DNA of 64,000 nucleotides from an uncultured bacterium (GTDB lineage Bacteria > Verrucomicrobiota > Kiritimatiellia > RFP12 > UBA1067). The stretch is taken from the NCBI GenBank assembly GCA_902780865.1, contig CACZHC010000048.1:2890-66889 (forward strand). Direction: 5' to 3'. This document shows positions 6,001 through 53,444 of the stretch, piece by piece (the stretch's first letter is position 1; each line of letters opens with the position of its first letter). A program made the position numbers and the translations under genes. The notes under the pieces were generated by a model, which was not told where the DNA came from, ran no database searches, and saw only the letters and a program-made list of their open reading frames with translations.

Positions 6001-9000
6001 CTGAAGCCGCCGTAGCCGCCGTCGGGCGTCTGGGGCGAATAGGGATCGTCGAAGCCGACCAAAAGCGGCCAGAACGGCATGGCGGTGACCGGCATGGTGT
6101 TCTGGTAGTACTGGGCCGTATAGCTGGCGGGCGAACTCGTGTCGGTGAACCAGAGCGGCGTCGGGTCGGTGTGAGTCGTCATCGGGCTCGTCAGGTTCGC
6201 CGTGACGCGTTCGGAGTCGTTCCTGAGGCCGTCGCCGTCGGGATCGGCCTCGCCTGCGCCCATCGACCACGGATAGCGGAACGGATCAAGGGCCGCGGCG
6301 GCCTGGAGCGGCGTCGGATCGGCGATGCTGCCCGGCATGCCCATGAGCGCGACGATGCGGTTGAAGTCGGGATGGGTCCACTCGTTCCAGAACGCGTTGT
6401 AGAAGGCGGGCGCACCCCAGGCAAGGGCAATTATGTCCTTGGCCCCTGCCCCGGTCGAGCCAAGGAGCGGGTTGAGGCCGTGGAACATCTCGTAGTAGTC
6501 GTCCATGCCGTCGCCGTCAGTGTCGGCGAGACGAGGATCGGTCGAGACGTAGACGCCCGCAGGAGGCATCATGATGCTCGGCTGTATCACGGCGCAGGTG
6601 ATCATGCGGTCCCAGTAGTGGATGGGCGACGCCATGTAGCCGTTCTTGCGCCAGCCGGCAGCGACCCAGGGCGTCGAGTACATGTAGTTGTAGCCGTCGC
6701 CGTAGTACTTTCTCGCGATGACTGTATTGCCGGGCACTACGTTCGTGATCACTTCGTAGACGAAATTGGTCATTTCGGCACCCGTGAACTCGTTGATGGT
6801 GACCGTGCTGTCAATGGCGTTGGTGACGATCGAGACCACAGCGCCGTCGCCCCAGTTCCCGATTGCCGTGAAGACGAACTGGTCTGCATCCTGCATCATC
6901 GGCGTGAAGGCCGGTGCCTCGTTGATGACGTGGTTGCTGAGAAGCGGCCCCATGGGATTCATCAGATCGTACTCGCCCTCGTCGAGATAGCGGCCCATGA
7001 GCGGGGTCGTGATGTCGTCGTAGCGGAAGTGGCGCACCTGCTGGACGAGATACTCCTGGTAGTTCTGGAGACCGTCATGGTCGAAGTCGACGTCGCGCAC
7101 CGTGCCGAGAAGCGGGTCGGTCGAGTTGCCGCCGTCAATCGGGTCGGTCCATCCGTCGCCTCCCCATGTCGCGTCCATGCCGCCGCAGATGTAGACGACG
7201 TTGCTCGCGAGCGCGAAGCCCGCCGCATTGAGGCCGTCGGACGTGAACGTCGCCTCGGCGATATCGGGGTCGAAGTTGGGAGCCGGCCCCACGTACTTGC
7301 GCGTCAAGGCGTCGACGGCGATGCCGGCGTACTGCATCTCCCACGGGTCGGGGAGACCGTCGATATCGGTGTCAACCGTGCACGGGTTCATGCCGCCGCC
7401 GCGCACGCAGCAGGTGATGGAATCCTGCGGATTGCCGTAGATGAACGTCATGCCGGCCGCGGTAGGCGCAACAATGTAGGAGTTGCCGCCGTTGTACCAC
7501 GTTCCGCGCCACGCCATGCCCTCATAGCCGTCGAGGATTCCGTCGCCGTCGGTGTCGGGATTGTCCGGGTCGGTCGGGAAGAACTTGTTGAACCAGCCCT
7601 GCTGGAAGCCCTCTCCCGCCGGGTGGAGGCCGGGATGGTTGTTGTAGATCGACCCGTCCTTGTCCCACGGCTCGCCAAAGCCCTCTCTGTCTCTGCCGAC
7701 AGCCGTCGGCCTGGAAGGCGCCGCGTTCGGGTTGCGGCCCTTGTAGAGCTCCCAGCCGTCAGGCACGCCGTCGCCGTCGGTGTCGGCGCCATGGCCCTTG
7801 ACTGGGCTCTTCGTACTGCCGGCCTCGGCGAATGCATTTGCAAGGTATTCGGAGATGTTTGCGGTCGCCAGAAGGTTCGCCGACGTTTCCGTGTCGTACG
7901 TCGTCGCGTTTTCCGTGGCGTTGGTCTGGTTCAGGATCGCCTCGATGTCCGTCTTCGCGTACACGATGTTCGGCTTGGTCGTGAAGGCGAGGAATGTCGC
8001 CCAGATGTCGCCTGGGTCGTATTTGCCGTCGTTGTAGTACACGATGCCGAAATCGTGGCGGTAGCGCATGACGAGATATTCGTCGTAGTCCGTGTATGGA
8101 TCGGTGTTGACCGCGGCACCAGTCGAGTCGAGCGGCGAAAGGGCGAGGTTGATCTGCGGGTTCCAGCGATCGGCCACATAGCCGGCGCCGTTCTTGTACC
8201 AGCCCGTGCGCGGATCGAAGCCGAAGGCCGCTTCAACCTGGTCGTGTATGAGGATGTGGGTAGTGTTGACGAGCAGGGTTCCCTCGGGGATCGTGTACGC
8301 GCCGCGCCTAAACACCAGATTGCCTTCAGCGTCGCGGTACTTGTGGTCAAGCATCGGGTAGCTCCAGTGCCAGACGGCGGGAATCGGAATTGGCGGAGCG
8401 TCGGTTTCGAGACCGTAGAGGTATGGGGCCCCGGTGGCGTCCAGCTTCTCAGGAGCGACCAGCGCGCTCGCGAGCGGGACGTCGCGAATCGTGATAGCGC
8501 CCTGGGACGTATAGCGCATTATCGTGCTGTCGCCGGCGTCGGGATCGTTCGCATCGACCGTATAGCGCCTATTGTCATCGTCGTCGTAGTAGTAGTAGAG
8601 CGGATAGTTGTCGTCGCCGTTGGCGTCTGTTGGACTGACCGTCTGGATGTAGAAGCCATTCGAATCGTAGTACTTCTTCATGGCATACATCTCAATGTCC
8701 CTTGTCTCGTAATCGCGGTATTCGCGGAGTTCCGAGCCAAGGTCGAAGACGTATGTGGTGGGGGCGTTGGGGTCGGCGTTCGGTATCTCTGCGGCAAAGT
8801 AGCGGCTAAGCTCCGTGTACGCCATGAAGTCGCCATCGGGGTTGCCGACCTTCGAGCCGTTCAGCGGGTCGAGCGAATGCAGAACCTCCCAGCCGTCGCA
8901 CATGTGGTCGCCGTCGGTATCCCAGTGGCAGGGATTTGTGCCGATGACAAGCTCCTCCAAGTCCGTGAGGCCGTCGCCGTCGAAGTCGGGGTTGAAGTCC

Positions 9001-9450: not shown

Positions 9451-12400
9451 GTTGAGCTTGCCCTGCGCCTGCCACACGCCGGGGATGTAGTCATCGTCCG
9501 GGTTCCCGGCGGCGAGATCGGTGAGGTCGGCTTCGGTCTTGTCGCCGCCGGTCATCGTCGTGATGAGCGAATCGATGCCGTTGCCCCACGTGGCGATTGC
9601 GAAATAGTCGGGAATGCCGTCCTGGTTGATGTCGCCGAGGTTGTCCTCGGGCTGCCATTCCTTAGCGAAGACGGCCTCCGCGTAGACGGGAATGTACGAC
9701 TCGTCCTCGGTCGTCGCGGTCGGGAGGTAGGCCGTCGCAGGCTCGGCCCTCGCGCTCGGCTGCTCGGGCGCGAGCGTGAGCGTCCACTCCGGCGGCCCGC
9801 TCTCGGTCTGCGGGTTCGAAATGAGCCAGGCGTAGAGGAAGCTGTCCTTCGTGGCGTCGGGATAGGGATAGAACCCGGCGGTCGTGTCGGCGGTAGCTGC
9901 CTTTGTCGTGCCCGAGCCGGTCTCGTCGAGCGCGAGGTCCATGCCGTTGTCGAGCCAGCCGTTGTCAAAGTCGCCCACGCGGTAGCCCCACGCAAACACG
10001 TCGACCGTCGACGCGGACGAGCAGTTCCACCTCAGGCGCCAGTAGGTGCCGTCCGAGAACGTCGCGCCGGGGACGTAGAGGTGACCTTCGCCGCGGCCGC
10101 CCTTGAGGGCCGTGCGCGAATACTTCTTGGAGAGTTCGCTGTTGCCGAAGCCCGTCGGGCCGTTAGGAATCGTCGTCAGGAACTTGGACGGCCTGATGAA
10201 GTACATGTACGTCCAGGTCTGGATGCCGCCGTCCTTGTCCTGGATCGTGAGGACTACGGTCTGCTCCTTCTGGCGCGAGCCGAAGTTCGGGACGAACGTG
10301 CCGCTCCACTCGTCGGTGTCGGTTACGTAGAATGTCGTTTCGTTCTCGCAGCCCTTGAAGGACACCTTGATGCCGGGACCTTCGCCCGAAGGCCATACGG
10401 TGGTGAAGTCGTAGTCGACGTCGTTGCGGATTTCCCAGCTGATCGGATAGGAGTCCGCCGCGCCGCCGGCGACGTTCCACGCATTCGTGTTCTCGTCCGT
10501 GACGTAGCCGAACTCCGGCGTCATGTTGTTGATGTAGATCTTGGTCTCGTGCGGCGTGTAGTACTCGGCCCAAGTCATCGTCGGGTCGGAGGATATCCCG
10601 TCTGAAACGACCTCGGCCTTGACGGTGAAGCCCTTGGAGCTCGAAAGGCGCGTGCCGTCCATCGAGTCGATGTCGACCGAGATCGTCTGCGCGGAGTCGA
10701 AGCTGATGTAGTACTCGTTGGCGGCGAGCGCCGGGTAGCCGGCGGGCACCGTCTTGAACTCGTTCGCGAGGACGAGCGCCCCAGGGTTGACGCCCTCGGG
10801 CGGGGTGACCGTCAGCTTGACGACGATGTCCTCGTCGGAGTCAAAATAGCCGAGACCGACGTCGAACTTCGCCCTCGTGCCCGGGGGCAGGAACTCGTCG
10901 TAGGAGGAGTCGGCCGTAATCGTGATCGTGGGGTTGGACAGGACGACGAAGGAGATGGAGTACGTGACGGCGGAGAACCGCGTCATGTCCTTGTCCTTCA
11001 TCTGGATCTTGACCGTCCACGTTCCGGCGCGCGGGAAGTTGTAGACGATCGGGCATTCGTTGATGTTCATGCCGTCCGGCACGACGGTCGTGAAGACGGT
11101 TCTCGCGGCGTTCGCCGTGGTCGTCGGGGTGGTCACAGTGCCCGTCGTGTCGTGCTCGACCGTTCCGTTGACAACCGCCTGCCCGTCGCGGTAGGCCGTC
11201 CACTTGTAGGTGAAGCCGTGCTTCAGGTCGTAGGAGACGTCGTCGAACTCGGGCTGGATCGTCTGGTCCTGGCCCTTCGGATACTGGTTGGAGAAGGTAT
11301 AGCCGTCGCCATCGGCCTCAAAGCCGTTGAGCGACACCGTGACGAAGTTCGGTTCCTTGTTGTAGACCGTGATGTTCAGCATCTCGGTCGTCGCGTAGCC
11401 CGGCATCCTGACGCCGGTGTACTCCTTCGTCTTGCTGAGCACGACGGAGAACGTGTAGTTCTGGCCCGCGTCGTCGGCCGAGAGGCCGTCAAGCACCGTG
11501 AAGGAGCCGTTGACGAAGCTGCCGACCTCGGAGATCGTGAGGCCAATGGAACCAGGCGCGGCCGCCGTCGCGTCCGTCAGAATCGCCTTCGCGCCCGTGC
11601 CGCCGAACATCGAGGCGTCCATGTCGCCGTTGCAGAGCAGGAACGCGTAGATCGGCTCCTCGGTGTCGTTCTGGGCGCTGAGCGAGATCCTGAAGTGCAC
11701 CGTGTCGCCCTCGATGTAGTTGTCGGGATCGGGGTCGAGGCAGGTCGCGCTCGTCGTCTTCGCGGGAGTCACGTTCACGGTGAACTGGACAATCTCGCTC
11801 TTCTTGCCGCTGATCGGCGAAATGACCTGGATCTGCGACGTCTGCGCGCCCGACGCGGAGTACTTCACCGTCGGCGGGTTGCCGCTCGTGAGCCCTATGA
11901 GCTCGCCGCCCTCGCCGCTCGCCTTGAACCTCTCGGTCAACGTCTGCCAGCTGGCCGTCGAGCCCGTCTTGATGCGCACCTGGTAGCCCGTGTCCACGTC
12001 CGTCATGTCCGCGTACGTGTCCTCGACGGCGACGTTGATCTCGAGCTCCTCGCCCGACGTCACTTCATAGACGCTCGTGACGTCAGGGGTCGTGATGACC
12101 GGCTTCGCGGCGCTGATCCACACGCCCGCAGCCGTGACGCCCTGGATGCCGGCTGCCGCCTTCTCCTCGTCGCTGACGTAGGGCGTGAACTTCAGCTGGT
12201 GCCCCGTGCCGATGGTGTGAGAGTCGCCGCGGAGGGCATAGACGTAGACCGTCTTCGGCTCGGTTGAGTATGCCGGAATCGTGAACGTGATCTCGGTGGG
12301 GTCGGGAAGCGTCTGGACCGTGTTCTCGCTCGTCGAGAAGCGAACGTAATCGCCCCAGCTGCCGGTCGCGGTCGTGTCCTCGAACGTCGTCTTGAGCGTC

Positions 12401-26975: not shown

Positions 26976-27250
26976 TTTAGGGTCACTTAGGGTCTATTAG
27001 CGTCATTTAGGGTCAATGTAGAGTCTTGAGCCCCTACCAGCCCCTACCAGCCCATAACCGACCCTAACCGACCCAACCAGACCCTAACTGACCCTAACCG
27101 ACTCTAACCGACCCAACCAGACCCTAACTGACCCTAACCGACCCTAACCGACCCAACCAGACTCTAACTTGACCCTAACCGACTCTAACCGACCCTAACC
27201 GACTCTAACCGACTCTAACCGACCCTAACTGACCCTAACCGACCCTAATA
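26976..27250. repeat. 10-bp phased tandem array: about 5 units TTAGGGTCNN, then about 22 units of the inverse GACYCTAACY, abutting the stop codon of the four-helix-bundle gene
   Basis: The sequence stays in register with the 10-base print blocks: accctaaccg acccaaccag accctaactg accctaaccg actctaaccg ... The orientation flips at about 27029. Confidence 0.9.
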
Positions 27251-28012: not shown

Positions 28013-28036
28013 TAGGGCCGTTCCTTTTTTTAGGGT

Positions 28037-28095
28037 CAATTAGGGTCGGTTAGAGTCGATTAGAGTCGATTAGGGTTTTAGAGTCTGATGGTTCA
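28037..28095. repeat. TTAGRGTC 10-bp units (about 6) immediately upstream of the four-helix-bundle gene
   Basis: ttagggtcaa ttagggtcgg ttagagtcga ttagagtcga ttagggtttt agagtctgat. Confidence 0.85.
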
Positions 28096-28195
28096 ATTGC
28101 GCTTATATGATACCATAGGAAGGCAGAGAGAAATGGGTCATGAATAGGTTTTTGGTGGGTCTTTTTTGACCCACAGCAATATCCCCCGACCGTCT

Positions 28196-28393
28196 CTAAA
28201 AGCGCCAAACTCGACCCTAAACCGACCCTACCAGACTCTAACCGACTCTAACTGACCCTACCAGACTCTAACCGACCCTAACTGACCCTACCAGACTCTA
28301 ACCGACTCTAACTGACCCTACCAGACTCTAACCGACTCTAACTGACCCTACCAGACTCTAACCGACCCTAACTGACCCTACCAGACTCTACCA
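28196..28393. repeat. Tandem array with 30-bp higher-order unit (3 x 10 bp: GACCCTACCA GACTCTAACC GACYCTAACT), about 6 copies
   Basis: gaccctaccagactctaaccgac[tc]ctaact repeats head to tail. It has the same 10-bp phase and word family as 26976-27250. Confidence 0.9.
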
Positions 28394-28602
28394 GCCCTTC
28401 CCGCTCCCCGCGAGAAGCCATGCCCTCCATTCGGAGAGGCCGTTCTTCACGAGAAACTTTGCGACTGCAAACCTTCGCTCCCGACTTCCTTCGCCCGCAC
28501 CCTCGCGGGTGCAAACTTGTCTTCTACTCTCGAGTTCTTCCTAACAGGTCTCTTGGAGATTTCCACTCCAGACCTTGTATCATGTCCTGCGTACAACAAA
28601 AA

Positions 28603-29520: not shown

Positions 29521-29689
29521 ATTGGAAACAACATAAACAACTTTTGAAAACAACTTTTTCTGTCTGGTAGGGGCGGCTCGGCACTCGCTTCGCTCGGCTT
29601 GGCTCGCTACAAATCGCGAGCCCCGCTTACGCGGCGGTTACCTCCGTGCCGTCCGCATACAACGGACGCCTCGGAGAGGCGTCCCTACC
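29521..29689. repeat. Intergenic repeat module: GTTGTTT-iteration block plus extended (124-nt) GGTAGGGGCG...CGTCCCTACC multi-hairpin element
   Basis: ttggaaacaacataaacaacttttgaaaacaactttttctgtct, then ggtaggggcggctcggcactcgc...cggacgcctcggagaggcgtccctacc. It is near-identical at both ends to 30491-30894. Confidence 0.8.
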
Positions 29690-29730
29690 AACACCATGCC
29701 CGGCTCGCTTTCACGCTCCATAAACAAAAA

Positions 29731-29752
29731 CCCGCGGCGTTTCTGCCGCGCG
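29731..29752 (-). terminator. Terminator module (slightly degenerate) 6 nt after the vapC stop
   Basis: cccgcggcgtttctgccgcgcgg, preceded by aaacaaaaa on the plus strand. Confidence 0.5.
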
Positions 29753-29757
29753 GCAAG

Positions 29758-30159
29758 TTAGCCAACAACTCTCTCCAACAATGGCACATTGCCAAAGTGA
29801 GCATCTAACGAATGCACCACCGCCCCTTTCGTGATTGCGCATGCCGCAATCCATAAGTCATTTTGCGGAATTGGCGTTCCGTTTGCCTTCAGAACTCTAA
29901 AAATCCTGGCATACGCATTTGCGACATCTTCAGTAACTCCCACAATCTTTACTGCCGTGGAATCAAGAAACATCTCAAGCGCCGAAAGCTGTTGGTGACC
30001 TACAGCCGTTTCGACAGCGACTCCAGCCTTGTATTCACCGATCACAACAGTGGGAACAAGAATTTGCTCATAAGTCGACACTACTTTCGCGATTTTCTCG
30101 TTCCCGCGAAGGAACTTTATCAAAACATTTGTATCGAGCAATAGCGGCATCATTTCCAC
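29758..30159 (-). CDS. vapC: PIN-domain ribonuclease toxin VapC (copy 1)
   Basis: 133-aa ORF. LLLDTNVLIKFL and NDLWIAACAI are PIN motifs. The GTG/ATG start overlaps the antitoxin stop. Confidence 0.85.
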   Translation of the reverse strand: MEMMPLLLDTNVLIKFLRGNEKIAKVVSTYEQILVPTVVIGEYKAGVAVETAVGHQQLSALEMFLDSTAVKIVGVTEDVANAYARIFRVLKANGTPIPQNDLWIAACAITKGAVVHSLDAHFGNVPLLERVVG

Positions 30160-30410
30160 ATCTCCTCGTCAATCGTGCCAAATGCTGACTGCGTCGCCTC
30201 AAGCTCGCTACAATCTGTATCTTTTAGAATGCCGCAGAATTTCCCAAGATCATTCCGCGGCTCCGTGGCACGACAGCGCGCAAATCCGATAATGGGGGCG
30301 ATAATTTCCTTTAGCGCAGCATTGACGCTTACTCCCTTTTTGTCGGAATACGCTCGAATTGCATATATGAAATCACTCTCAGCCCTAAAAGTTAATGCGG
30401 CAATAGCCAT
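30150..30410 (-). CDS. vapB: VapB-type antitoxin (copy 1)
   Basis: 86-aa ORF directly upstream of, and overlapping, vapC. It shares the C-terminal IDEEMWK and the RAY.D..G.S.N core with the ORF at 36371..36616. Confidence 0.65.
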   Translation of the reverse strand: MAIAALTFRAESDFIYAIRAYSDKKGVSVNAALKEIIAPIIGFARCRATEPRNDLGKFCGILKDTDCSELEATQSAFGTIDEEMWK

Positions 30411-30490: not shown

Positions 30491-30894
30491 GGAAAACAAC
30501 ATAAACAACATTTGAAAACAACTTTTTCTGTCTGGTAGGGGCGGCTCGGCACTCGCGTTGCTCGGCTTGGCTCGCTACAAACCGCGAGCCCCGCTTACGC
30601 GGCGGTTACCTCCGTGCCGACCGCGCACACCGGACGCCCTGGTAGGGGCGGCACTCCGTGCCGACCGCGCACCCACAAATATGGGCGTGGCGCAATTGTC
30701 TTCTCATGCGCCCCTCTACCCCAACTCTCGCATGCGCCCGATTTTTTCATTTCCTGCGGCGCCTGCCGCAGCGGTCACGCCGGAGGCGTGCCCCTACCAG
30801 CGAACCCATCGGTAGGGGCGGCAACACCGCTTCGGTAGGGGCGGCACCCCGTGCCGTCCGCGTACAACGGACGCCTCGGAGAGGCGTCCCTACC
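30491..30894. repeat. Expanded intergenic repeat cluster: GTTGTTT block plus several nested GGTAGGGGCG / CCCCTACC half-elements
   Basis: ggtaggggcgg occurs at about 30534, 30640, 30813 and 30829. cccctacc occurs at about 30790 and 30887. The ends match 29521-29689. Confidence 0.8.
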
Positions 30895-30935
30895 AACACC
30901 ATGCCCAGCTGGCTTTCACGCTCCATAAACAAAAA

Positions 30936-30957
30936 CCCGCGGCGTTTCTGCCGCGGG
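30936..30957 (-). terminator. Intrinsic terminator (conserved module) after the 843-aa gene
   Basis: The minus strand reads aaagcccgcggcagaaacgccgcgggtttttgttt. Confidence 0.65.
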
Positions 30958-46307: not shown

Positions 46308-47273
46308 TCACTTCCCCAGATACGCCTCTTCGAGCGAGCGGCCAGGGGTGACGGCGATGACGCCGAAGGGAACGAGGCGCGGCAGAAGCGCCGCGTTCAC
46401 AGTCTCCACCGCAAGCCCCTCTCCAAACTCGGCGACAAGCATCTTCTCACTTGGTAGGGGCGCGCTTGGTAGGGGCGGCACTCCGTGCCGTCCACGGGCG
46501 TCTTGGAAAGACGCCCCTACCGAGAACCTCACTCCCGGGCATTCTTGCTCAATCGCTGCGAGGTCGCTCGGCAACTCCTTTAGCGCGTAGACGATCCGTC
46601 CGCTGTCGGACGTAATCGCGCGCAGCGTCTCCATTCGCTCCACTTTTCCGTCTGCGACGAACGCGACGTGCGTGCAAAGCTTTTCGATGTCGTCGAGCTG
46701 GTGCGAAGAGACGACAAGCGTCGTTTTGCCCCTGAGCGAAAGAAGGAACGAGCGAAGACGCTCGGCCTCGACCGGATCGAGCCCGCTCAGCGGCTCGTCG
46801 AGCATCACGACTTCCGGGTGGCCGAGAAACGCCTGCGCTACCATGACGCGCTTTCGCATTCCGTGCGAGAGCGAGCGAATGGACGCGTTTGCCTTGTCCG
46901 CCAGGTTCATGACTTCGATGAGTTCGTCGGCCGACTTCGCGGCATCCTTCTTTGTCATCCCCTGAAGACGCGCGTAGCCGATGAGGAGCGACCGGACGCG
47001 TCCCTCGTTCGGGAGATCGGAGTCCTGCGGAAGAATCGTGAACCGCCCGCCGTGGCGACGAGCGTCAAACGGACCGCTGCCGAGGATGCTCACTTCGCCT
47101 GCGTCGGGAATAACGAAGCCGGCGACCGTCATCATCCATGTCGTCTTGCCCGCGCCGTTTCGCCCGACGAGTCCCGTGATTGACCCCGAGGGAACGGCGA
47201 GCGTGAAGCCGTTGAGCGCCGCGTGGCGGCCGTACTTCTTTACGAGAGCGCGGGTGATTATCGCTTCGTTCAT
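46308..47273 (-). CDS. ABC transporter ATP-binding protein (ABC-2 type) carrying a 69-nt repeat insertion near the C-terminus
   Basis: True start MNEAIITRALVKKYG, with the ATG at 47273 overlapping the permease stop as ATGA. Walker A GRNGAGKTT, signature LSHGMRKRV, Walker B VVMLDEP. Confidence 0.9.
   Translation of the reverse strand: MNEAIITRALVKKYGRHAALNGFTLAVPSGSITGLVGRNGAGKTTWMMTVAGFVIPDAGEVSILGSGPFDARRHGGRFTILPQDSDLPNEGRVRSLLIGYARLQGMTKKDAAKSADELIEVMNLADKANASIRSLSHGMRKRVMVAQAFLGHPEVVMLDEPLSGLDPVEAERLRSFLLSLRGKTTLVVSSHQLDDIEKLCTHVAFVADGKVERMETLRAITSDSGRIVYALKELPSDLAAIEQECPGVRFSVGASFQDARGRHGVPPLPSAPLPSEKMLVAEFGEGLAVETVNAALLPRLVPFGVIAVTPGRSLEEAYLGK
46453..46521. repeat. GGTAGGGGCG...CGCCCCTACC element (69 nt, 23 codons) inside the ABC ATPase CDS
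   Basis: ggtaggggcgcgcttggtaggggcggcactccgtgccgtccacgggcgtcttggaaagacgcccctacc. It is translated as VGASFQDARGRHGVPPLPSAPLP. Confidence 0.85.
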
Positions 47274-48166
47274 CGGACATCCCTCCTCGCAAAGACGGCA
47301 TGACCGACTGAAAGATAGAGAAGCCCGAGCATCACAAGCCAGGTTGCGCTCGCCGCAACGGGCATGAACGACGAGCGCCAAAGCGCGGCGTCCACCGACG
47401 ACGGGAAGAGGCGAACAAACACAAGAAGCTTCCCGCCGAGCCAGGCGGAGCCAAAGCCCTTCAGGATCGCCGGCACGACGGAAAAGGCGATCATGAGGAG
47501 TATCGCCACGGCGTCGGCCTTCGCGCCCGACTTGAATAGATGCGAGACTCCAAGCGCGAGCCCAAGCCACGCAAGCGAGAGGAACCACGCCTTCACGGAC
47601 CAGACGATCATCGCGGGAAGGAGCGCCGGAATGTCCGCGCCCGAGAGCCGGAACGCCGCTACTATCCACGCCGCTACCGCTCCTACGAGAAGCCCGGCGA
47701 GCATCATCAGCGCAATCCCAAAATACTTGCCAAGCGTCCATTCAAGCCGCGTCACGCGAAGCAGCATGTACTTCGCCGCGCCCGACTTCACTTCCTCCGC
47801 GACGCGCCTCGTCGCGACAAGCACCGTCAAGAGCGGCACCGCAAGAAAGACGATCCACGCGTAGATGAGCTCGGCGGGGTGCTTCCCGACAATGTCGTCG
47901 TAGATTAGAGAATCGCCGACCGCGCTGCGGACGAGATGTTGGAACGGCTTCGACTTCCAGAGCGCCGCGGAAACGACGCCGCTCTTGCCCTCGACCTTCT
48001 CGACCTGGAGAATTTCCGCGAGTCGGTCTTCCATCTTGCCGAGCGCCGTTATCGCGCCGCTCATCCCGAGAAGGGACGCGGCGAGATAGAGCGCGACGAG
48101 CACGATGGCGCGGCGCGTACGCACCGCGGCGGCGAGCTCGAAAAGCGCAACGCGGATGGTTCTCAT
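47270..48166 (-). CDS. ABC-2 type transporter permease
   Basis: Start MRTIRVALFELAAAV, with the ATG at 48166 overlapping the upstream stop. Six hydrophobic segments or so. Confidence 0.8.
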   Translation of the reverse strand: MRTIRVALFELAAAVRTRRAIVLVALYLAASLLGMSGAITALGKMEDRLAEILQVEKVEGKSGVVSAALWKSKPFQHLVRSAVGDSLIYDDIVGKHPAELIYAWIVFLAVPLLTVLVATRRVAEEVKSGAAKYMLLRVTRLEWTLGKYFGIALMMLAGLLVGAVAAWIVAAFRLSGADIPALLPAMIVWSVKAWFLSLAWLGLALGVSHLFKSGAKADAVAILLMIAFSVVPAILKGFGSAWLGGKLLVFVRLFPSSVDAALWRSSFMPVAASATWLVMLGLLYLSVGHAVFARRDVR

Positions 48167-48906
48167 TTCCCCGGCCTTTCCCCGAAGTCCTCGAGCTTGT
48201 CCTGCACGGCGATAAGCGGTTCGCCTACGGAAGGGTCGATGAAGTCGGTGAGCTGAAGCTTTGAGACTTCGCCGCGATGGTCTTCGTCGACACAAGTGCC
48301 GATCGCGTCATACGCCTCGGCGAGCGACGTCGAGATGTCGCCCATGAGACGGACGCCGAGCTCTGGCGTCATCGCCTCTGCGGACGCGACGCGGTCGGCC
48401 ACTATCTGAATCGACTCGCGCAGCTTCGCGTTCATATCCTCAAGCGCATCGTTGAACGACTCGGCGCTCTTGTCGTCGAGGCCAAGCTTCTCGATCGCCG
48501 AAGCGCGCGCGACCTCGATGCGCGTGCGCCAAAGCTCGGCCGCTTCGTCGATGCGCGCGCGCAAATCCTCTGGCGCGACGCGCTTGCGTTTTTGTGGTAG
48601 GGGCGCTTCTCCGCCGCGACCGTCGGCTGATTCGCCTGGTAGGGGCGCCTCTCCGAGGCGACCGGCGACGGCGGTTGCGTTCGTTGAAGGTTTCGTATCT
48701 TTCACACGGCGCGGGCGTTTGGCGACTTCGGGAATGTTGACGAGTTCGGTGAAGGAGCCAAAGGCGTTCTTTGGCTTCGCCTTCGTCTTTTCCTCCTGTT
48801 CGCGCACGTCGCGCGAACGCAGTTCCTCGGCCGGGCCGTAGTAACCGACAAGCCCGCCCGCGATGAACACAAGCGGCAGCCAAACTATCACAGGTATCTT
48901 TTTCAT
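48163..48906 (-). CDS. Membrane-anchored hypothetical protein, first gene of the ABC operon, with repeat-derived insertion
   Basis: MKKIPVIVWLPLVFIAGGLVGYY is a TM anchor. The internal segment AGRLGEAPLPGESADGRGGEAPLPQ is encoded by two repeat half-elements. Confidence 0.7.
   Translation of the reverse strand: MKKIPVIVWLPLVFIAGGLVGYYGPAEELRSRDVREQEEKTKAKPKNAFGSFTELVNIPEVAKRPRRVKDTKPSTNATAVAGRLGEAPLPGESADGRGGEAPLPQKRKRVAPEDLRARIDEAAELWRTRIEVARASAIEKLGLDDKSAESFNDALEDMNAKLRESIQIVADRVASAEAMTPELGVRLMGDISTSLAEAYDAIGTCVDEDHRGEVSKLQLTDFIDPSVGEPLIAVQDKLEDFGERPGK
48595..48664. repeat. Two tandem half-copies of the GGTAGGGGCG element inside a CDS
   Basis: ggtaggggcgcttctccgccgcgaccg ... ggtaggggcgcctctccgaggcgaccg. 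Confidence 0.8.
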
Positions 48907-48917
48907 GTTTTGTATTC

Positions 48918-48957
48918 CTCTCTGCGTACTCTGCGCCTCTGCGCCTCTGCGTTAAAA
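48918..48957. repeat. CTCTGCG-iteration / CTCTGCGTTAAA repeat (family B), intergenic
   Basis: ctctctgcgtactctgcgcctctgcgcctctgcgttaaaa. Related copies occur at 50711-50818, 60415-60570 and 61886-61988. Confidence 0.75.
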
Positions 48958-48961
48958 AACT

Positions 48962-50683
48962 TCACCCAATTCTTTCCAAGAATCTTCCGGCTCTGTTCTC
49001 CGAGAACTTTCCGTCAGCATACGACACCACGCCGTTCACCACGACGGCCTTCACTCCGCTCGAGAACTGATGCGGCTCGACGTACGTCGCCTTCGACGCG
49101 AACTCGTCTTCCTTCCAGATCGCGAGATCGGCGAACGCGCCTTTCTCGATTACGCCGCGATGCGCTATGCCGAAGCGACGCGCGGGAACGGATGTCATGC
49201 GAGCGATCGCCTCTTCGCGCGAAACGCCGAGCGCCCTGACGCGGCGGTAGAACTCGGGCATCGTGCCGTATGCGCGAGGGTGCGGGTGGTCCGCGCCGAG
49301 GGGACCCCACGGTGCGCGAAGGGAAGCGTCGCTTCCGGGGACGATCCACGGACGCAAGAGAATCTTGTCTAAGTTCTCTTCGCTCATCCCGAAGAAGAAC
49401 GCGCCGGTCTTGCAGCCGTCGAGTTCGAGGATGCGGCAGATTAGTTCTCCTGGTAGGGACGCGTCTCCGACGCGTCCGCGGTCGCCTCGGAGAGGCGCCC
49501 CTACCAAAAGCGGCCCCACCATGTCGCCCATCGCGCATTGTGAACCCAAAATTTCAGCAACTGTCTTGCCGCTGAGCGGCTTGGTGGATTCGTGCCACGT
49601 GCCGCCTATCATCACCGTCGACCAATCGCGGTCTGACGCGTTGATCTCGGCGACGATCTTCGCGCGCGTCGCGGGATCTGCGAGACGCGCCATCTCCGCG
49701 GGCGCGGCGCCTTCTTGCGCCCAGTCGGGAAGAACAATGTCGAGGTCTGTCCCCGCCGCGCAGAACGGATAGCGGTCACTTCCGAGAAGAAGTCCTTCGC
49801 CAATCGCGTTCTCAATTTTTTCAAGCACTGCATCGATCTTGTGCCAGTTTCTTTTCCCACTCGTTTTGAGGTGAGAAACTTCCGCGCGGATTCCTGTCGC
49901 CTTCACGAGGTCGATCACTTCGTCAATCGCCTCGAGAATCCTGTCGCCCTCCGATCGCATGTGCGTCGCGTAGAATCCGCCGCGCTCCGCGGCGACTTTA
50001 GCGAGCGCTATGACTTCTTCGGGCGTCGAGTATTTTCCCGGCTGGTAGATGAGCCCCGTCGTGAGGCCCCAGCCGCCGGCGTCGAGGGACTCGGAGAGAA
50101 GTCGCTGCATCTCCTTTAGCTCGTCGCTCGTCGCCGCGCGTCCGGCATAGCCGACGACGGATGAGCGGAGAGTGTTGTGGCCGATGAACTGGATTGTGTT
50201 TATCGCTGGCTTCGCCGCTTCGAGGACTGTGCGATACTCTGCGAGCGAGCGCCAGGTGAGGCGAGAGCCGAGCAGTGTCGCCCAATCGCCCGAGAGACGC
50301 GCCTCGCCATAGCGCGGCGCGATAGAGCCGCCACACTGGCCGTTGATTTCAGTAGTGATTCCTTGGGAGATTTTCGACGGCGCGTCTGGCTCGAGAACGA
50401 GATATGCATCGGAGTGCGCGTGGGCGTCGATGAAGCCGGGGCTCACGATGCAGCCGGTGGCATCGATGGTAGCAGCTTTGCTATTTTGTTTTTGCCACAA
50501 AGAACGCAAAGGGTCGCAAAGTGTTTTGGGGTCTGGGGCGGAGCCCCAGTTTCCTTGTGAACTTTGCGTTCTTTGCGGCTTAATAATATCGACAATCTTG
50601 TCGCCTTCGACTACGACATCGCCATGGAACCCGGGCTTCCCCGAGCCATCAACAATCAAACCATTCTGTATTATCAGCGTCAT
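48962..50683 (-). CDS. N-acyl-D-amino-acid deacylase (D-aminoacylase) family amidohydrolase with two repeat-derived in-frame insertions
   Basis: MTLIIQNGLIVDGSGKPGFHGDVVVEGDKIVDI...SPGFIDAHAHSD (metal-binding HxH), ...GSDRYPF...PGSDAS. The insertions lie at 49452-49505 and 50494-50578. Confidence 0.85.
   Translation of the reverse strand: MTLIIQNGLIVDGSGKPGFHGDVVVEGDKIVDIIKPQRTQSSQGNWGSAPDPKTLCDPLRSLWQKQNSKAATIDATGCIVSPGFIDAHAHSDAYLVLEPDAPSKISQGITTEINGQCGGSIAPRYGEARLSGDWATLLGSRLTWRSLAEYRTVLEAAKPAINTIQFIGHNTLRSSVVGYAGRAATSDELKEMQRLLSESLDAGGWGLTTGLIYQPGKYSTPEEVIALAKVAAERGGFYATHMRSEGDRILEAIDEVIDLVKATGIRAEVSHLKTSGKRNWHKIDAVLEKIENAIGEGLLLGSDRYPFCAAGTDLDIVLPDWAQEGAAPAEMARLADPATRAKIVAEINASDRDWSTVMIGGTWHESTKPLSGKTVAEILGSQCAMGDMVGPLLVGAPLRGDRGRVGDASLPGELICRILELDGCKTGAFFFGMSEENLDKILLRPWIVPGSDASLRAPWGPLGADHPHPRAYGTMPEFYRRVRALGVSREEAIARMTSVPARRFGIAHRGVIEKGAFADLAIWKEDEFASKATYVEPHQFSSGVKAVVVNGVVSYADGKFSENRAGRFLERIG
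49452..49505. repeat. 54-nt GGTAGGGACG...CGCCCCTACC element inside the D-aminoacylase CDS
   Basis: ggtagggacgcgtctccgacgcgtccgcggtcgcctcggagaggcgcccctacc (counted as 54 nt). It is translated as VGAPLRGDRGRVGDASLP. Confidence 0.9.
50494..50578. repeat. Second palindromic element (CCACAAAGAACGCAAAG...CTTTGCGTTCTTTGCGG) inside the D-aminoacylase CDS
   Basis: The inverted arms flank the hairpin ctggggcggagccccag. It encodes PQRTQSSQGNWGSAPDPKTLCDPLRSLWQKQ, lying between the conserved GDKIVDI and IDATG...PGFID motifs. Confidence 0.8.
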
Positions 50684-50710
50684 TATAATTCATTCGTCTG
50701 GTGTATTGTT

Positions 50711-50818
50711 TTTTAACGCAGAGTCGCAGAGACGCAGAGTAGTATTGTAGCTCTTTGAAGTTTTCTCCGTATCTATCTTTCTCTGCGCACTTCGCGTCTT
50801 CGCGTCTCTGCGTTAAAA
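50711..50818. repeat. Family B palindrome (TTTTAACGCAGAG...CTCTGCGTTAAAA), intergenic
   Basis: ttttaacgcagagtcgcagagacgcagag ... ctctgcgcacttcgcgtcttcgcgtctctgcgttaaaa. Confidence 0.85.
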
Positions 50819-50864
50819 TCTAAACTGCCGCCTTTAGGTTTGTTGTCTTCCCAATCTTGTTTTT

Positions 50865-51960
50865 TTATTTTAGGAACTTGAAGCACAGCGGGCGCCAGCA
50901 GGGAATTGGTTCGCCAACGGCTTTAAGCTCGCACTTCTCGCGGTTGAACGCATAGACCTGAATCTCGTTCGACATCTTGTGCCCGACGACCATGAACTTC
51001 TCGCCCGGCATCAGCTCGAAGTCGCGCGGGAACTTGCCGGTCAGCTTCGAAACATTCTTCAGCATGAGCGTGCCGTCGTCGTTCACGGCGAAGAATGCGA
51101 TCGAGTCGTGCCCGCGGTTCGACGCCATCAGGATCTTGCCGTCGGCTGTCAGCTTGATCGCCGCGGCCTTTGTCTCTGTCTCCTTAAGTGTGCAACCCTC
51201 GGGCAGCATCGACCACTTGCCGATGCGCTTAAATGGTAGGGACGGCTCTCCGAGCCGTCCGCGGGCGTCTTGGAAAGACGCCCCTACCCGTCGACGACAA
51301 CTCGTTCACTACAAAGAGGAACTTGCCGTCGTTTGAGAAGATCGCGTGACGCGGACCGTCGCCAGGATCGGCCTTTAGCGTGACAACTGGCTTTTCAAGT
51401 CCACCCGACTTCTTGTACTCGTAGAAGTTCACCCTATCACAGCCGAGATCGCACACGCCCATGAGCTTCCCGTCGGGCGTGTAGAACGTCTGGTGCGCGA
51501 ACGCCTTTTGCTGGCGGTCCTTGCGCGGACCAACCGCATCGTTAGGCAATGCGGCGCTCGTCAGCTGGCATGAGTCCAACGCCATCACTCCGTAAATTCC
51601 CGACCAGTAAACCGCAACCGACATGATGCTCTCGTCTGGCGAAAGCACGACATGGCACGGCGTCTCGCACGAAAGCTCGGCAAGCTTCGTCATCTTGCCG
51701 ATGCGGTGATTCTCGACGTCGAACTTGACGAGCGCGCCATGAGACTTGTTGTCGCCCTTCTCCGCGACGACGGAATAGAGCGTCTTCCCGTCCTTGGATA
51801 TCTGGTAGTACGTCGTTCCCTCGCAGCCGTTCACCGACTGGACGATCTTCGCGGCGCCGGTTTCGGTGTCGCACTCGAGAACCTTGAGCGCGTCCTTGTC
51901 GGGCGAGCCCGTGTTGCATCCGACAATGCAGTAGACGGTGGCGGCAATCATGGTGTTCAT
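50865..51960 (-). pseudogene. Lactonase (7-bladed beta-propeller, 6-phosphogluconolactonase-like) split into two ORFs at the edge of a 54-nt repeat element
   Basis: ORF 51229..51960 (..GPRHAIFSNDGKFLFVVNELSST) and ORF 50865..51209 (..ADGKILMASNRGHDSIAFFAVNDDG..) are consecutive parts of one propeller protein. They are in different frames. Confidence 0.65.
51235..51288. repeat. 54-nt GGTAGGGACG...CGCCCCTACC element at the lactonase break point
   Basis: ggtagggacggctctccgagccgtccgcgggcgtcttggaaagacgcccctacc. Its canonical phase (VGASFQDARGRLGEPSLP) is continuous with the downstream lactonase frame. Confidence 0.9.
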
Positions 51961-52019
51961 TTTCCGCAGATTTCCTTGTGACCTTTGTGGCTAAACTTCA
52001 TAGCTCTTTATCCTTTTCC

Positions 52020-52073
52020 GGTAGGGGCGTGTCTCCGACGCGCCCGCGGGCGTCTCGGAGAGACGCCCCTACC
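52020..52073. repeat. 54-nt GGTAGGGGCG...CGCCCCTACC element, intergenic copy
   Basis: ggtaggggcgtgtctccgacgcgcccgcgggcgtctcggagagacgcccctacc, between the lactonase start and the UPF0210 stop. Confidence 0.9.
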
Positions 52074-52076
52074 AAT

Positions 52077-53444
52077 TTAATTCTTGAACGAATGAATAGG
52101 AGCCGGTATTCTTCCCTTGCGAGCAATCATCTTCTCGCACGAGAACTTCGACACCTTCATCACAGGCGCATGGCCGAGAAGCCCGCCGAACTCCACCGAG
52201 TCACCGACCTTCTTCCCCGCGACGGGAATGATCCTCACTGCGGTCGTCTTCTGGTTGACCATTCCGATCGCCGCTTCGTCGGCGATTATGCCGGAGATCG
52301 TCGCCGCAGAAGTCGAGCCGGGAACGGCGATCATGTCGAGACCGACGGAACATACGCACGTCATCGCCTCGAGCTTCTCGATGGTGAGAGCGCCTGCGTT
52401 CACCGCGTCGATCATTCCCTGGTCTTCGGAAACGGGAATGAACGCGCCCGAAAGCCCGCCGACGTAGGAGCTCGCCATCACGCCGCCCTTCTTAACCTGG
52501 TCGTTGAGAAGCGCGAGCGCGGCCGTCGTTCCTGGAGCGCCAGGCTCTTCAAGGCCGATCTCGCGCAGGATGTCCGCGACCGAGTCGCCGATCGCCGGCG
52601 TCGGCGCGAGCGAGAGGTCGATGATTCCGAAGGGAACGCCGAGACGCTTCGACGCCTCCTGCGCGACGAGCTGACCGACGCGCGTGATCTTGAACGCCGT
52701 CTTCTTGATTGTCTCGCAAAGAGTCTCGAAGCCGACTCCGCGGCAAGTGTGCCGCAGCACGTGGTTGACGACGCCAGGTCCCGAGACGCCGACGTTGATC
52801 ACGGCATCCGCTTCGCTCACGCCGTGGAATGCGCCGGCCATGAAGGGATTGTCGTCGGGAGCGTTGCAGAGGACGACGAGTTTCGCGCAGCCGATCGAGC
52901 CACGGCTCTTCGTCTTCGCCGCCGTCTCCTTCACGATCTCGCCCATGAGCCGCACGGCGTCCATGTCGATGCCGGTTTTCGTCGAGCCGACGTTGACGGA
53001 CGAGCAGACTCGCTCGGTCGCAGCCATCGCGGCGGGAATCGAGCGAATGAGAAGTTCGTCTGCGGGCGTCATTCCCTTCGATACGATTGCGGAGTAGCCG
53101 CCGATGAAGTTGATGCCGAGCTTCTTCGCCGCGCGGTCGAGCGTCTTCGCTATCTTCACGAAGTCGGACGGCTTCTTGCAGCAGGACGAGCCGACGATCG
53201 CGGCGGGCGTGATGGAGACGCGCTTGTTGACGACTGGCACGCCGAACTCGCGGCCAATGTCGTCGCCGGTCTTCACGAGGTCTTTCGCGAGACGCGTTAT
53301 CTTAGCGTAGATTTTGTCGCAAGTCTTCTTGACGGACGAGTCCGCGCAGTCAAGCAGCGAGATGCCCATTGTAATCGTCCGGACGTCGAGGTTCTCCTCG
53401 AGAATCATCCGGTTCGTTTCAAGAACTTCAGAGATATTGATCAT
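52077..53444 (-). CDS. UPF0210 (PFL4/DUF711) family protein
   Basis: [33 protein letters not shown] is the typical UPF0210 N-terminus. 455 aa, paired with an ACT protein as usual for the family. Confidence 0.85.

Follow-up and report, generated by a model that had tools for sequence, protein, structure and literature searches.

What kind of element is the short palindrome that recurs, partly inside protein-coding genes, in the 64-kb stretch of Kiritimatiellia DNA analysed here (the window), and how does it come to be read as protein? We consider it very probable that the 54-mer is a REPIN-like doublet of two inverted GTAG-type REPs, presumably mobilised by a REP-associated tyrosine transposase (RAYT) in a gut or rumen Kiritimatiellae bacterium and tolerated in proteins. 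A pattern search of the window for GGTAGGGRCG-N(20-50)-CGYCCCTACC gave matches at 46453/46468-46521, 49452-49505, 51235-51288, 52020-52073 and 30834-30894, against an expectation of zero from 100 dinucleotide-preserving shuffles of the window. All the copies listed in the initial annotation are in place. The second, third and fourth matches are exactly 54 nt long, and the first, 69 nt in total, is a 54-mer (46468-46521) with a duplicated 15-nt head in front of it (46453-46467). The locus at 48595-48664 was correctly located, although what were taken for half-copies are single hairpin units whose heads lie at 48596 and 48638. The longer relatives (29566-29689 and 30534-30894) were also confirmed. 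The window has a total of 19 GTAG heads, all reading GGTAGGG, spread over seven loci and arranged as inverted doublets (five sites), tandem single units (48596, 48638) and a cluster (30534-30894). The seven loci in 64 kb are clustered, and four of them are intragenic, a share atypical for elements defined as extragenic. The doublet at 29566-29689 is also part of a direct repeat of about 225 nt that flanks a VapC/antitoxin pair. The G+C content of the window is 48-64%, so that it is GC-rich only to a moderate degree and the earlier description as a high-GC genome does not hold. The features are collected in Table 1.

Table 1. Host genes and REP elements in the 64-kb window.
Feature	Position	Strand	Remarks
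REP doublet, left hairpin with nested ~63-nt insert, intergenic	29566-29689	.	
Intergenic REP cluster	30534-30894	.	several units
Cluster part: nested-insert head	30534		
Cluster part: inverted pair	30639-30668/30771-30800		
Cluster part: partial head	30811		
Cluster part: 61-nt doublet	30834-30894		
ABC transporter ATPase, host gene	46308-47273	-	
15-nt duplicated REP head GGTAGGGGCGCGCTT	46453-46467	+	translates as SAPLP on gene strand
54-nt inverted GTAG-type REP doublet (REPIN-like)	46468-46521	.	in frame, ABC ATPase C-terminal domain
15-nt unit and doublet together	46453-46467, 46468-46521		about residues 251-274 of 321, ABC ATPase
247-aa protein, N-terminal hydrophobic segment, no family match, host gene	48163-48906	-	
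Two single REP units, direct orientation	48596-48663	+	in frame, N-terminally anchored 247-aa protein, residues ~82-104: GRLGEAPLPGESADGRGGEAPLP
Amidohydrolase, N-acyl-D-amino-acid deacylase-like, 573 aa, host gene	48962-50683	-	
54-nt REP doublet	49452-49505	.	in frame, amidohydrolase residues 393-411, hypervariable loop
7-bladed lactonase, host gene	50865-51960	-	frameshifted in window; intact (377 aa) in L005
54-nt REP doublet	51235-51288	.	inside lactonase gene; in-frame read-through in sister assemblies
54-nt REP doublet, intergenic	52020-52073	.	3 nt 3' of DUF711 stop, 59 nt 5' of lactonase start

One REP is composed of a (T)GGTAGGGRCG head, a stem of 9 bp with a TCC loop, and a CGYCC tail, and the 54-mer joins two such GTAG-headed hairpins in inverted, tail-to-tail orientation. 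The GTAG tetranucleotide lies directly 5' of the palindrome, as in GTAG-type REPs. Behind most of the 19 heads comes a stem of 9 bp capped by a loop of 3 nt (-12 to -18 kcal/mol), and the folding energies of the complete 54-mers are -19 to -26 kcal/mol, with z-scores of -3.9 to -6.9, the predicted structures being either two hairpins closed by GGTAG/CTACC or a single long hairpin. The two-hairpin fold proposed initially is supported by covariation among 16 distinct 54-mers from the window and from other genomes. In this set 94.6% of the cells are paired, compared with 80% in shuffled controls and 40-48% when the pairing partners were slid, and 10 pairs have changed on both sides. None of 500 shuffles matched the observed percentage paired, the number of double-change cells or the covariation score. 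Compensatory changes keep both hairpins of the doublet.

Comparison with orthologues shows that the segments in the ABC ATPase, the amidohydrolase, the lactonase and the 247-aa protein are real in-frame insertions in variable regions, which supports the proposal that palindromic units are tolerated here as inserted peptides, as Rickettsia palindromic elements (RPEs) are. Some orthologues of the ABC ATPase and of the amidohydrolase lack the segment, about 22 residues at the lactonase element are additional to those of a solved homologue (PDB 3hfq), and near-identical strains lack the insert or carry a different one. No homologous residues were seen at the insert positions in alignments with distant orthologues. 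For the ABC ATPase, alleles that are 96% identical have no insert; the filled DNA has 74 nt in place of 8 nt, a net gain of 22 codons, and no target-site duplication was found between filled and empty alleles. None of the strain comparisons gave an empty site that was clean and had a simple junction. In the sister strain P0122 the 15-nt head unit is expanded to several copies. The REP-derived tandem units in the 247-aa protein likewise vary from two to four by strain. The shortest amidohydrolase orthologues lack the segment, and sister strains have other repeats at the same two loops. A second, different palindromic element lies in frame in the amidohydrolase at 50486-50582. With a mean pLDDT of 51, the quality of a structure model did not suffice to place the inserts on the surface. 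In other genomes, in-frame inserts of the same GTAG superfamily occur in UvrA, LigA, PheT, an HrpA-like helicase and an outer-membrane barrel, and in the last four Pfam domain matches flank or span the insert. Overall, 18 of 122 doublets (15%) in the cross-genome sample are in frame within coding-like ORFs.

The lactonase element is translated through in frame in four assemblies. Relative to these, the window has a 38-nt deletion immediately upstream of the element, and because of it the two halves of the gene are out of frame; the initial placing of four of five loci within CDSs is therefore right as to location, but the lactonase CDS is not intact. The 52020 copy occupies a classic REP position just behind a stop codon and is missing in strains L006, L008 and L011. 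This copy also falls within a spurious 504-aa ORF on the + strand and, as the window lactonase is broken at its element, one could suppose that the elements are in fact intergenic and that the read-through comes from mechanical ORF calling in GC-rich DNA. Such an annotation or assembly artefact is extremely improbable, since same-frame matches to protein families and solved structures flank the insert in the amidohydrolase and in the intact L005 lactonase, ABC ATPase orthologues align on both sides of theirs, and many independent assemblies agree; it is refuted for three of the four genes.

Regarding the reading phase, every intragenic copy in the window uses GTA-GGG...CCC-CTA-CC, and the peptides quoted in the initial annotation (VGASFQDARGRHGVPPLP, VGAPLRGDRGRVGDASLP and GRLGEAPLP) are correct. 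A fixed phase is nevertheless not a property of the element. Whichever strand is read, the GGTAGGG head closes one frame with a TAG stop; the two other frames stay open, and both are used in sister strains and in other genomes. The other phase (GRDAFPTRPRT...VPT) is present in the same amidohydrolase of sister strains, and the 18 in-frame intragenic doublets from other genomes divide into 11 in one phase and seven in the other. Their lengths modulo 3 are distributed 3/10/5, and therefore multiples of three are not favoured. A lack of length or phase bias among intragenic copies had been named at the outset as evidence against the proposal, and this lack is what the counts give.

A genome scan revealed at least 119 loci built in the same way (GGTAGGGRCG, hairpin, CGTCC, spacer, GGACG, hairpin, CGYCCCTACC), and doublets that share this head and architecture are present in several phyla, among them Verrucomicrobiota, Lentisphaerota, Kiritimatiellota, Acidobacteriota and Chloroflexota. 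In the metagenome collection, an exact 27-mer taken from two copies matched only the two orthologous loci; its subtype is therefore not a high-copy master sequence. In Verrucomicrobia, an ORF at 5515-5970 of L060 matches NCBIfam NF047646 'REP-associated tyrosine transposase' with 104.6 bits, above the cut-off of 80, and is found by tblastn with E. coli RayT at 3.75e-11. It has 52-nt doublets on either side, and the TAG of a REP head serves as its stop codon. Three more RAYT homologues all have the same head overlapping the stop codon, a doublet 3' of the gene and conserved synteny, and two of the three have a REP unit directly upstream. RAYT genes flanked by same-head doublets were thus found on four Verrucomicrobia contigs. 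No RAYT gene was found in the 64-kb window, and none could be tied to a Kiritimatiellae genome; we therefore infer, by analogy with the relatives, that a RAYT mobilises this REP family in this host. By the same analogy, the units would be non-autonomous and copied or moved by a single-copy RAYT, an HUH/Y1 enzyme that would recognise the hairpin and its GTAG head in single-stranded DNA. Insertions into genes would mostly be lost, the survivors being those in frame, outside the TAG frame and in surface loops or variable linkers, where translation of the GC-rich palindrome would yield a peptide of 18-23 residues rich in Gly, Pro, Arg and Ala.

Bacterial MITEs can also lie in frame, for example cyanobacterial Nezha and small dispersed repeats and the small mobile sequences of enterobacteria; their terminal inverted repeats derive from those of DDE insertion sequences, and they duplicate the target site on insertion. 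They have in common with the present elements that they are small, non-autonomous, palindromic and translatable within a host protein. The compact unit with perfect 10-bp inverted ends and the presence/absence polymorphism would suit a conventional MITE moved by the DDE transposase of a parent IS. However, the filled and empty ABC ATPase alleles differ without the duplication that such a MITE would leave, the termini are the heads of two independent, autonomous hairpins that also occur singly, in tandem and at variable spacing, and the same heads flank Y1/HUH RAYT genes and not DDE transposases. We regard a MITE as very unlikely, and return to the REP doublet.

Whether the intragenic copies serve their hosts is a separate matter. 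A selected Gly/Pro/Arg-rich loop (for surface diversification, for instance), or an mRNA hairpin that tunes translation or stability in an operon, would account for the retention of the lactonase and ABC ATPase inserts across strains 8-12% apart in DNA, for the different repeat families found, according to strain, at the same two amidohydrolase loops, and for the stability of the folds; a stabilising effect of REPs on the 3' ends of mRNAs is known (Di Nocera et al. 2013, PMC3733652). Against a function, near-identical strains lack the inserts or have different ones, the host proteins are mutually unrelated, the peptide is set by the palindrome, covariation keeps the nucleic-acid hairpin and not the peptide, and a tolerance filter would by itself give repeated use of the same loops. 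Function is thus unlikely, and the peptides of these REP doublets are probably neutral passengers. Close strains differ in the repeat families, nested inserts and copy numbers that they have at the same two loops of the amidohydrolase, at the loop of the lactonase and at the turn of the ABC ATPase, and REP stems are swapped between strains at orthologous sites. Insertion that is targeted to, or recurrent at, particular protein loops, instead of random insertion followed by a tolerance filter, is a doubtful reading of this pattern.

Di Nocera et al. (2013, PMC3733652) defined the superfamily of GTAG REPs, together with its link to RAYTs and its dimers within genes. In that survey the intragenic dimers encode 20-30 residues and are commonest in the verrucomicrobium Opitutus terrae, which has about 70 intragenic GTAG REPs and dimer hosts that include uvrA, DNA ligase and HrpA. 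In-frame tolerance of palindromes outside Rickettsia was therefore already known, and the 54-mers are a new family, in a new host phylum, of an already described kind. With known GTAG REPs, REPINs and BIMEs (E. coli REP/RayT, Pseudomonas REPINs, O. terrae GTAG-17 to GTAG-20) they share the GTAG head beside a palindrome of about 25 nt, single, tandem and inverted-doublet units, compensatory stem variation and repeats flanking RAYT genes, here in relatives. With O. terrae they also share intragenic dimers of about 15-30 residues and, in other genomes, the same kinds of host gene. In contrast to the O. terrae families (peptides VAGVADPG, VGPALAAG and GTGVPPV), this family combines the GGTAGGGRCG head with a TCC loop; its doublet is very compact at 54 nt in all, the spacer being constant at 2 nt, its local intragenic share is unusually high, a cognate host RAYT was not found, and its phylum, Kiritimatiellota, lies outside the coverage of the survey. 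The likeness to RPEs drawn initially is one of behaviour and not of kinship. RPE-1 to RPE-8 are also palindromes kept in frame at variable positions of otherwise conserved proteins, but RPE-4 and RPE-6 are members of the REP superfamily with a CGTC tag and RPE-1 has a length of 100-150 bp (PMC3733652), whereas the present elements have a GTAG head and 54 nt. Membership in an RPE family was rejected on head and length, judged by that published classification of RPEs. The host here is free-living or gut-associated, unlike the obligate intracellular Rickettsia.

In-frame REP doublets open no new class of mechanism. They add Kiritimatiellota, and metagenomes of gut and rumen, to the known range of the GTAG REP/REPIN superfamily and of its in-frame peptides encoded by palindromes. 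In genome annotation, such segments lengthen proteins and create spurious 'hypothetical' ORFs, and they can seed assembly errors or deletions, as in the frameshifted lactonase of the window. Among the strains there are natural alleles, some with inserts and some lacking them, in enzymes that have solved homologues; these alleles could be used to gauge how far protein folds tolerate loop insertions. If insertion were targeted or recurrent after all, the RAYT-REP system would be a generator of in-frame loop hypervariability, and the GGTAGGGRCG head, present in at least eight phyla, would mark one ancient RAYT-REP lineage that possibly spreads horizontally.

The organism belongs to the Kiritimatiellae, judging by the source names on homologues; contigs nearly identical to the region, and others with 88-98% identity, were found in metagenomes of gut and rumen, and dnaA, dnaN and gidA adjoin the region. 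A pattern search of the window recovered GGTAGGGRCG-N-CGYCCCTACC everywhere that the initial annotation had placed it, and found a further copy at 30834-30894 (0 expected, 100 shuffles). The head GGTAGGGRCG, with one mismatch at most, occurs 28 times in the window versus 6.8 expected. In the 69-nt copy, the 54-mer is preceded by 15 nt that duplicate its head. Longer relatives do exist at 29566-29689 and 30534-30894, and the supposed half-copies at 48596 and 48638 are present but are single hairpin units. Each half of the 54-mer is composed of (T)GGTAGGGRCG, a variable stem segment of 4-5 nt, a TCC loop, the complementary stem segment and CGYCC. This combination of GTAG and an imperfect palindrome defines a GTAG-type repetitive extragenic palindrome (REP), and two such units tail to tail form a REPIN/BIME-like doublet. 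As single strands, the 54-mers have predicted energies of -19 to -26 kcal/mol (z-scores -3.9 to -6.9), folding either as a Y with two hairpins or as one long hairpin. The stems covary: among 16 distinct 54-mers, 94.6% of cells are paired, compared with 40-48% in slid controls, and 10 pairs are changed on both sides. The observed percentage paired, the number of double-change cells and the covariation score were each reached by 0/500 shuffles.

Features of the window associated with the repeats, with the predicted insert peptides
Feature	Coordinates	Strand	Remark
ABC ATPase	46308-47273	-	host gene
ABC-2 permease	47270-48166	-	
247-aa protein	48163-48906	-	host gene
D-aminoacylase-like amidohydrolase	48962-50683	-	host gene
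7-bladed lactonase	50865-51960	-	host gene
DUF711 protein	52077-53444	-	
Direct repeats around VapC pair	29526-29750 and 30494-30955		each with REP doublet and terminator-like hairpin
Stem-exchange comparison	46468-46521		versus contigs L135, L136, L142, L143
Stem-exchange comparison	51235-51288		versus contig L137
Peptides from element inserts			VGASFQDARGRHGVPPLP; VGAPLRGDRGRVGDASLP (predicted translation)

The inserts are in frame and polymorphic among strains. In the amidohydrolase, solved D-aminoacylases align on either side of the element within the same ORF. The element corresponds to residues 393-411, a hypervariable loop between KPLSGKTVAEIL and SPGELICRILE in 76 aligned orthologues, the shortest of which have only 2-10 residues there. 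In sister strains this loop holds the window element, the window element plus a nested 15-residue insert, or another palindromic element (KPQRTQSPQRNWGSAPDPKTLCDPLRSLWQ). A second hypervariable loop (residues 35-66) behaves in the same way, and in some strains contains REP-derived peptides in another reading phase (GRDAFPTRPRT...VPT). An AlphaFold2 model of the amidohydrolase, based on the 76-sequence alignment, was dropped as evidence (mean pLDDT 51, pTM 0.49); it renders both insert regions, like much of the protein, as coil at pLDDT values under 50. Two other palindromic families occur in the neighbourhood. One, at 50486-50582, lies in frame in the N-terminal loop of the amidohydrolase (KPQRTQSSQGNWGSAPDPKTLCDPLRSLWQ), and in sister strains the same palindrome also fills the loop that holds the REP doublet in the window; the other, at 50700-50825, is intergenic (CGCAGAGACGCGAAG...CTCTGCGTCTCTGCG).

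Orthologues of the ABC ATPase read CPGVRLSAEG-DGVVAEFG at a turn where the window protein has 23 residues more. The alleles P0127 and P0130 (96% identical) are without the insert, and the orthologue P0122 has two doublets and several SAPLP units. The filled DNA has 74 nt in place of 8 nt of the empty DNA and is 66 nt (22 codons) longer overall. Comparison of filled and empty allele DNA revealed no target-site duplication at this insert, and a reading of the repeats as MITEs was rejected for lack of such a duplication. The lactonase is encoded in a single frame in four other assemblies (NELSSTVTSYAVAKGT.NL-VGASFQDARGRLGEPSLP-F.RIGKW), and the intact protein has around 22 residues more than PDB 3hfq at the insert point. 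In the window this gene is split between two frames because 38 nt (GTTACGAGCTATGCGGTAGCCAAGGGGACGCCAAATTT) are missing at 51288-51330, directly upstream of the element and next to the REP head; the segment is kept in contigs L005 (12157-12194), L006, L008 and L011 of other assemblies. Either the deletion beside the REP is genuine or the assembly is wrong here. The 247-aa protein has 2-4 tandem units of GR[VL]G[DE]APLPGESA, depending on the strain. The copy at 52020 is intergenic, 3 nt past the DUF711 stop codon, and at this site strain L006 has 62 nt missing and a residual GGTAGGG. No clean empty site was found for this copy (L006) or for the second lactonase site, where the flanks have diverged. 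The T often found before the head and the A often found after the tail are the sole hint of an exact junction or a target preference. Nothing suggests excision of the inserts at the RNA or protein level.

The initial annotation had proposed a fixed reading phase and a length that is a multiple of three. GGTAGGG has a TAG in one frame on either strand, and the open phases are GGT-AGG ('GR..') and GTA-GGG ('VG..'). All four intragenic sites of the window are in the VG...PLP phase, about a 1-in-8 to 1-in-16 coincidence when two phases are allowed. Among 122 doublets in other genomes, 18 (15%) are in frame within ORFs whose codon-position G+C resembles that of coding sequence on either side: 11 in the VG phase and seven in the GR phase, with length remainders modulo 3 of 0 (three), 1 (ten) and 2 (five). 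Because of these lengths, and because both phases are used, the GR phase also by sister strains in the same amidohydrolase, neither property belongs to the family; both are what selection leaves behind. Eight of the 18 ORFs, among them UvrA, LigA, PheT, an HrpA-like helicase and an outer-membrane barrel, were compared with Pfam; in the last four of those named, domain hits span the insert or flank it on both sides.

In relatives, the repeats are associated with a REP-associated tyrosine transposase (RAYT). The ORF at 5515-5970 of contig L060 (Verrucomicrobia MAG AV51) scores 104.6 bits against the NCBIfam model 'REP-associated tyrosine transposase' (cut-off 80) and is matched by E. coli RayT in tblastn (3.75e-11). 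It has 52-nt doublets of the same architecture on both sides (region 5443-6017), and it terminates at the TAG of a GGTAGGG head. In three of its 1,286 homologues, on long contigs (L148, L149, L150, ~9970-10620), the stop codon overlaps the same REP head and a doublet follows the gene; two of the three also have a REP unit directly upstream. These three and L060, in Udaeobacter-like Verrucomicrobia, have the conserved synteny DoxX, dienelactone hydrolase (DLH), RAYT, as would be expected for single-copy, vertically inherited RAYTs. The best 120 of the 1,286 homologues all share 65-85% identity with the query from Verrucomicrobia; one organism is named, Candidatus Udaeobacter, and no Kiritimatiellae RAYT is among them. 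No RAYT was detected in the 64-kb window when E. coli RayT, the L060 protein or the L131 protein served as query. Weak tblastn matches in L021 and L069 proved to be unrelated ORFs. The Y1 transposase of contig L131, which at 72 bits falls under the cut-off of 80, was left out of the count; its downstream flank has no GGTAGGG REP, and its upstream flank is truncated at the locus end. At L131 7200-7400 another palindrome (GGAGTGCGG...CCGCACTCC) comes after the Y1 transposase-like gene, a hint that this genome has a separate REP family and a dedicated enzyme for it.

A scan of one genome per species identified the same two-hairpin architecture, with variable spacers, at no fewer than 119 loci, where about 70 random matches are estimated for a pattern of that size in the same collection. 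The phyla include Verrucomicrobiota, Lentisphaerota, Kiritimatiellota (Pontiellaceae), Acidobacteriota, Chloroflexota, Planctomycetota and Armatimonadota; the internal two-hairpin design is common to almost all hits, and several genomes give many loci. A metagenome scan with an exact 27-mer common to two copies found 10 contigs, all orthologous lactonase or ABC ATPase loci, and yielded no RAYT and no genome-wide sample.

The lactonase and ABC ATPase inserts are kept across strains 8-12% apart in DNA. Local changes include head duplications (SAPLP units), tandem expansion of single units, nested inserts within hairpin loops, the deletion abutting the element in the window lactonase, if real, and stem-type replacement at orthologous sites (GGCAC versus CGCGTC). 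Between strains around 90% identical, one hairpin stem is wholly exchanged, GGCAC/GTGCC or GGCTC/GAGCC versus CGCGTC/GACGCG, suggesting replacement or gene conversion between copies and not point mutation. A second small element nested in the REP hairpin loop has approximately 63 nt in the window (29578-29640, 30546-30608) and 45 nt, read as TPLATADAARFARGI, in the sister-strain amidohydrolases P0002, P0046 and P0048. Direct repeats of ~225 nt, 94-97% identical, lie on both sides of a VapC (PIN) toxin and antitoxin pair (29758-30410, minus strand). Decamer tandem arrays (CCCTAACCGA / CCCTACCAGA) of up to 21 copies occupy 26977-27248 and 28030-28394, each with a shorter array of the reverse-complement decamer just upstream.

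The GTAG and CGTC REP superfamilies were defined by Di Nocera, De Gregorio and Rocco (BMC Genomics 2013; PMC3733652), who also connected the GTAG REPs with RAYTs and described REPs within genes. Intragenic GTAG repeats were most numerous in Opitutus terrae, a verrucomicrobium; dimers or groups that encode 20-30 residues made up over half of the inserts, and uvrA, DNA ligase and helicase genes held many of them. In-frame occurrence of such repeats in bacteria of the PVC superphylum is already documented, and the same work placed RPE-4 and RPE-6 of Rickettsia in the CGTC superfamily (PMC3733652). The O. terrae peptides listed there differ from those of the window, so the window repeats represent another family; our literature search found no paper linking GTAG-type REP repeats to Kiritimatiellae. 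The early comparison with Rickettsia palindromic elements (RPEs) describes the behaviour of the element, but its kind is that of the GTAG REPs and REPINs. We infer that a host RAYT, acting in trans on single-stranded hairpins, would mobilise the repeats, that a purifying filter would keep frame-preserving, stop-free insertions in tolerant loops, and that secondary local dynamics (duplication, expansion, nesting, stem replacement, deletion) would then reshape the inserts. The element represents no new kind of system; it adds a new family, from a new host phylum, to the GTAG REPs and REPINs, and the strain-level polymorphism of its inserts is informative.
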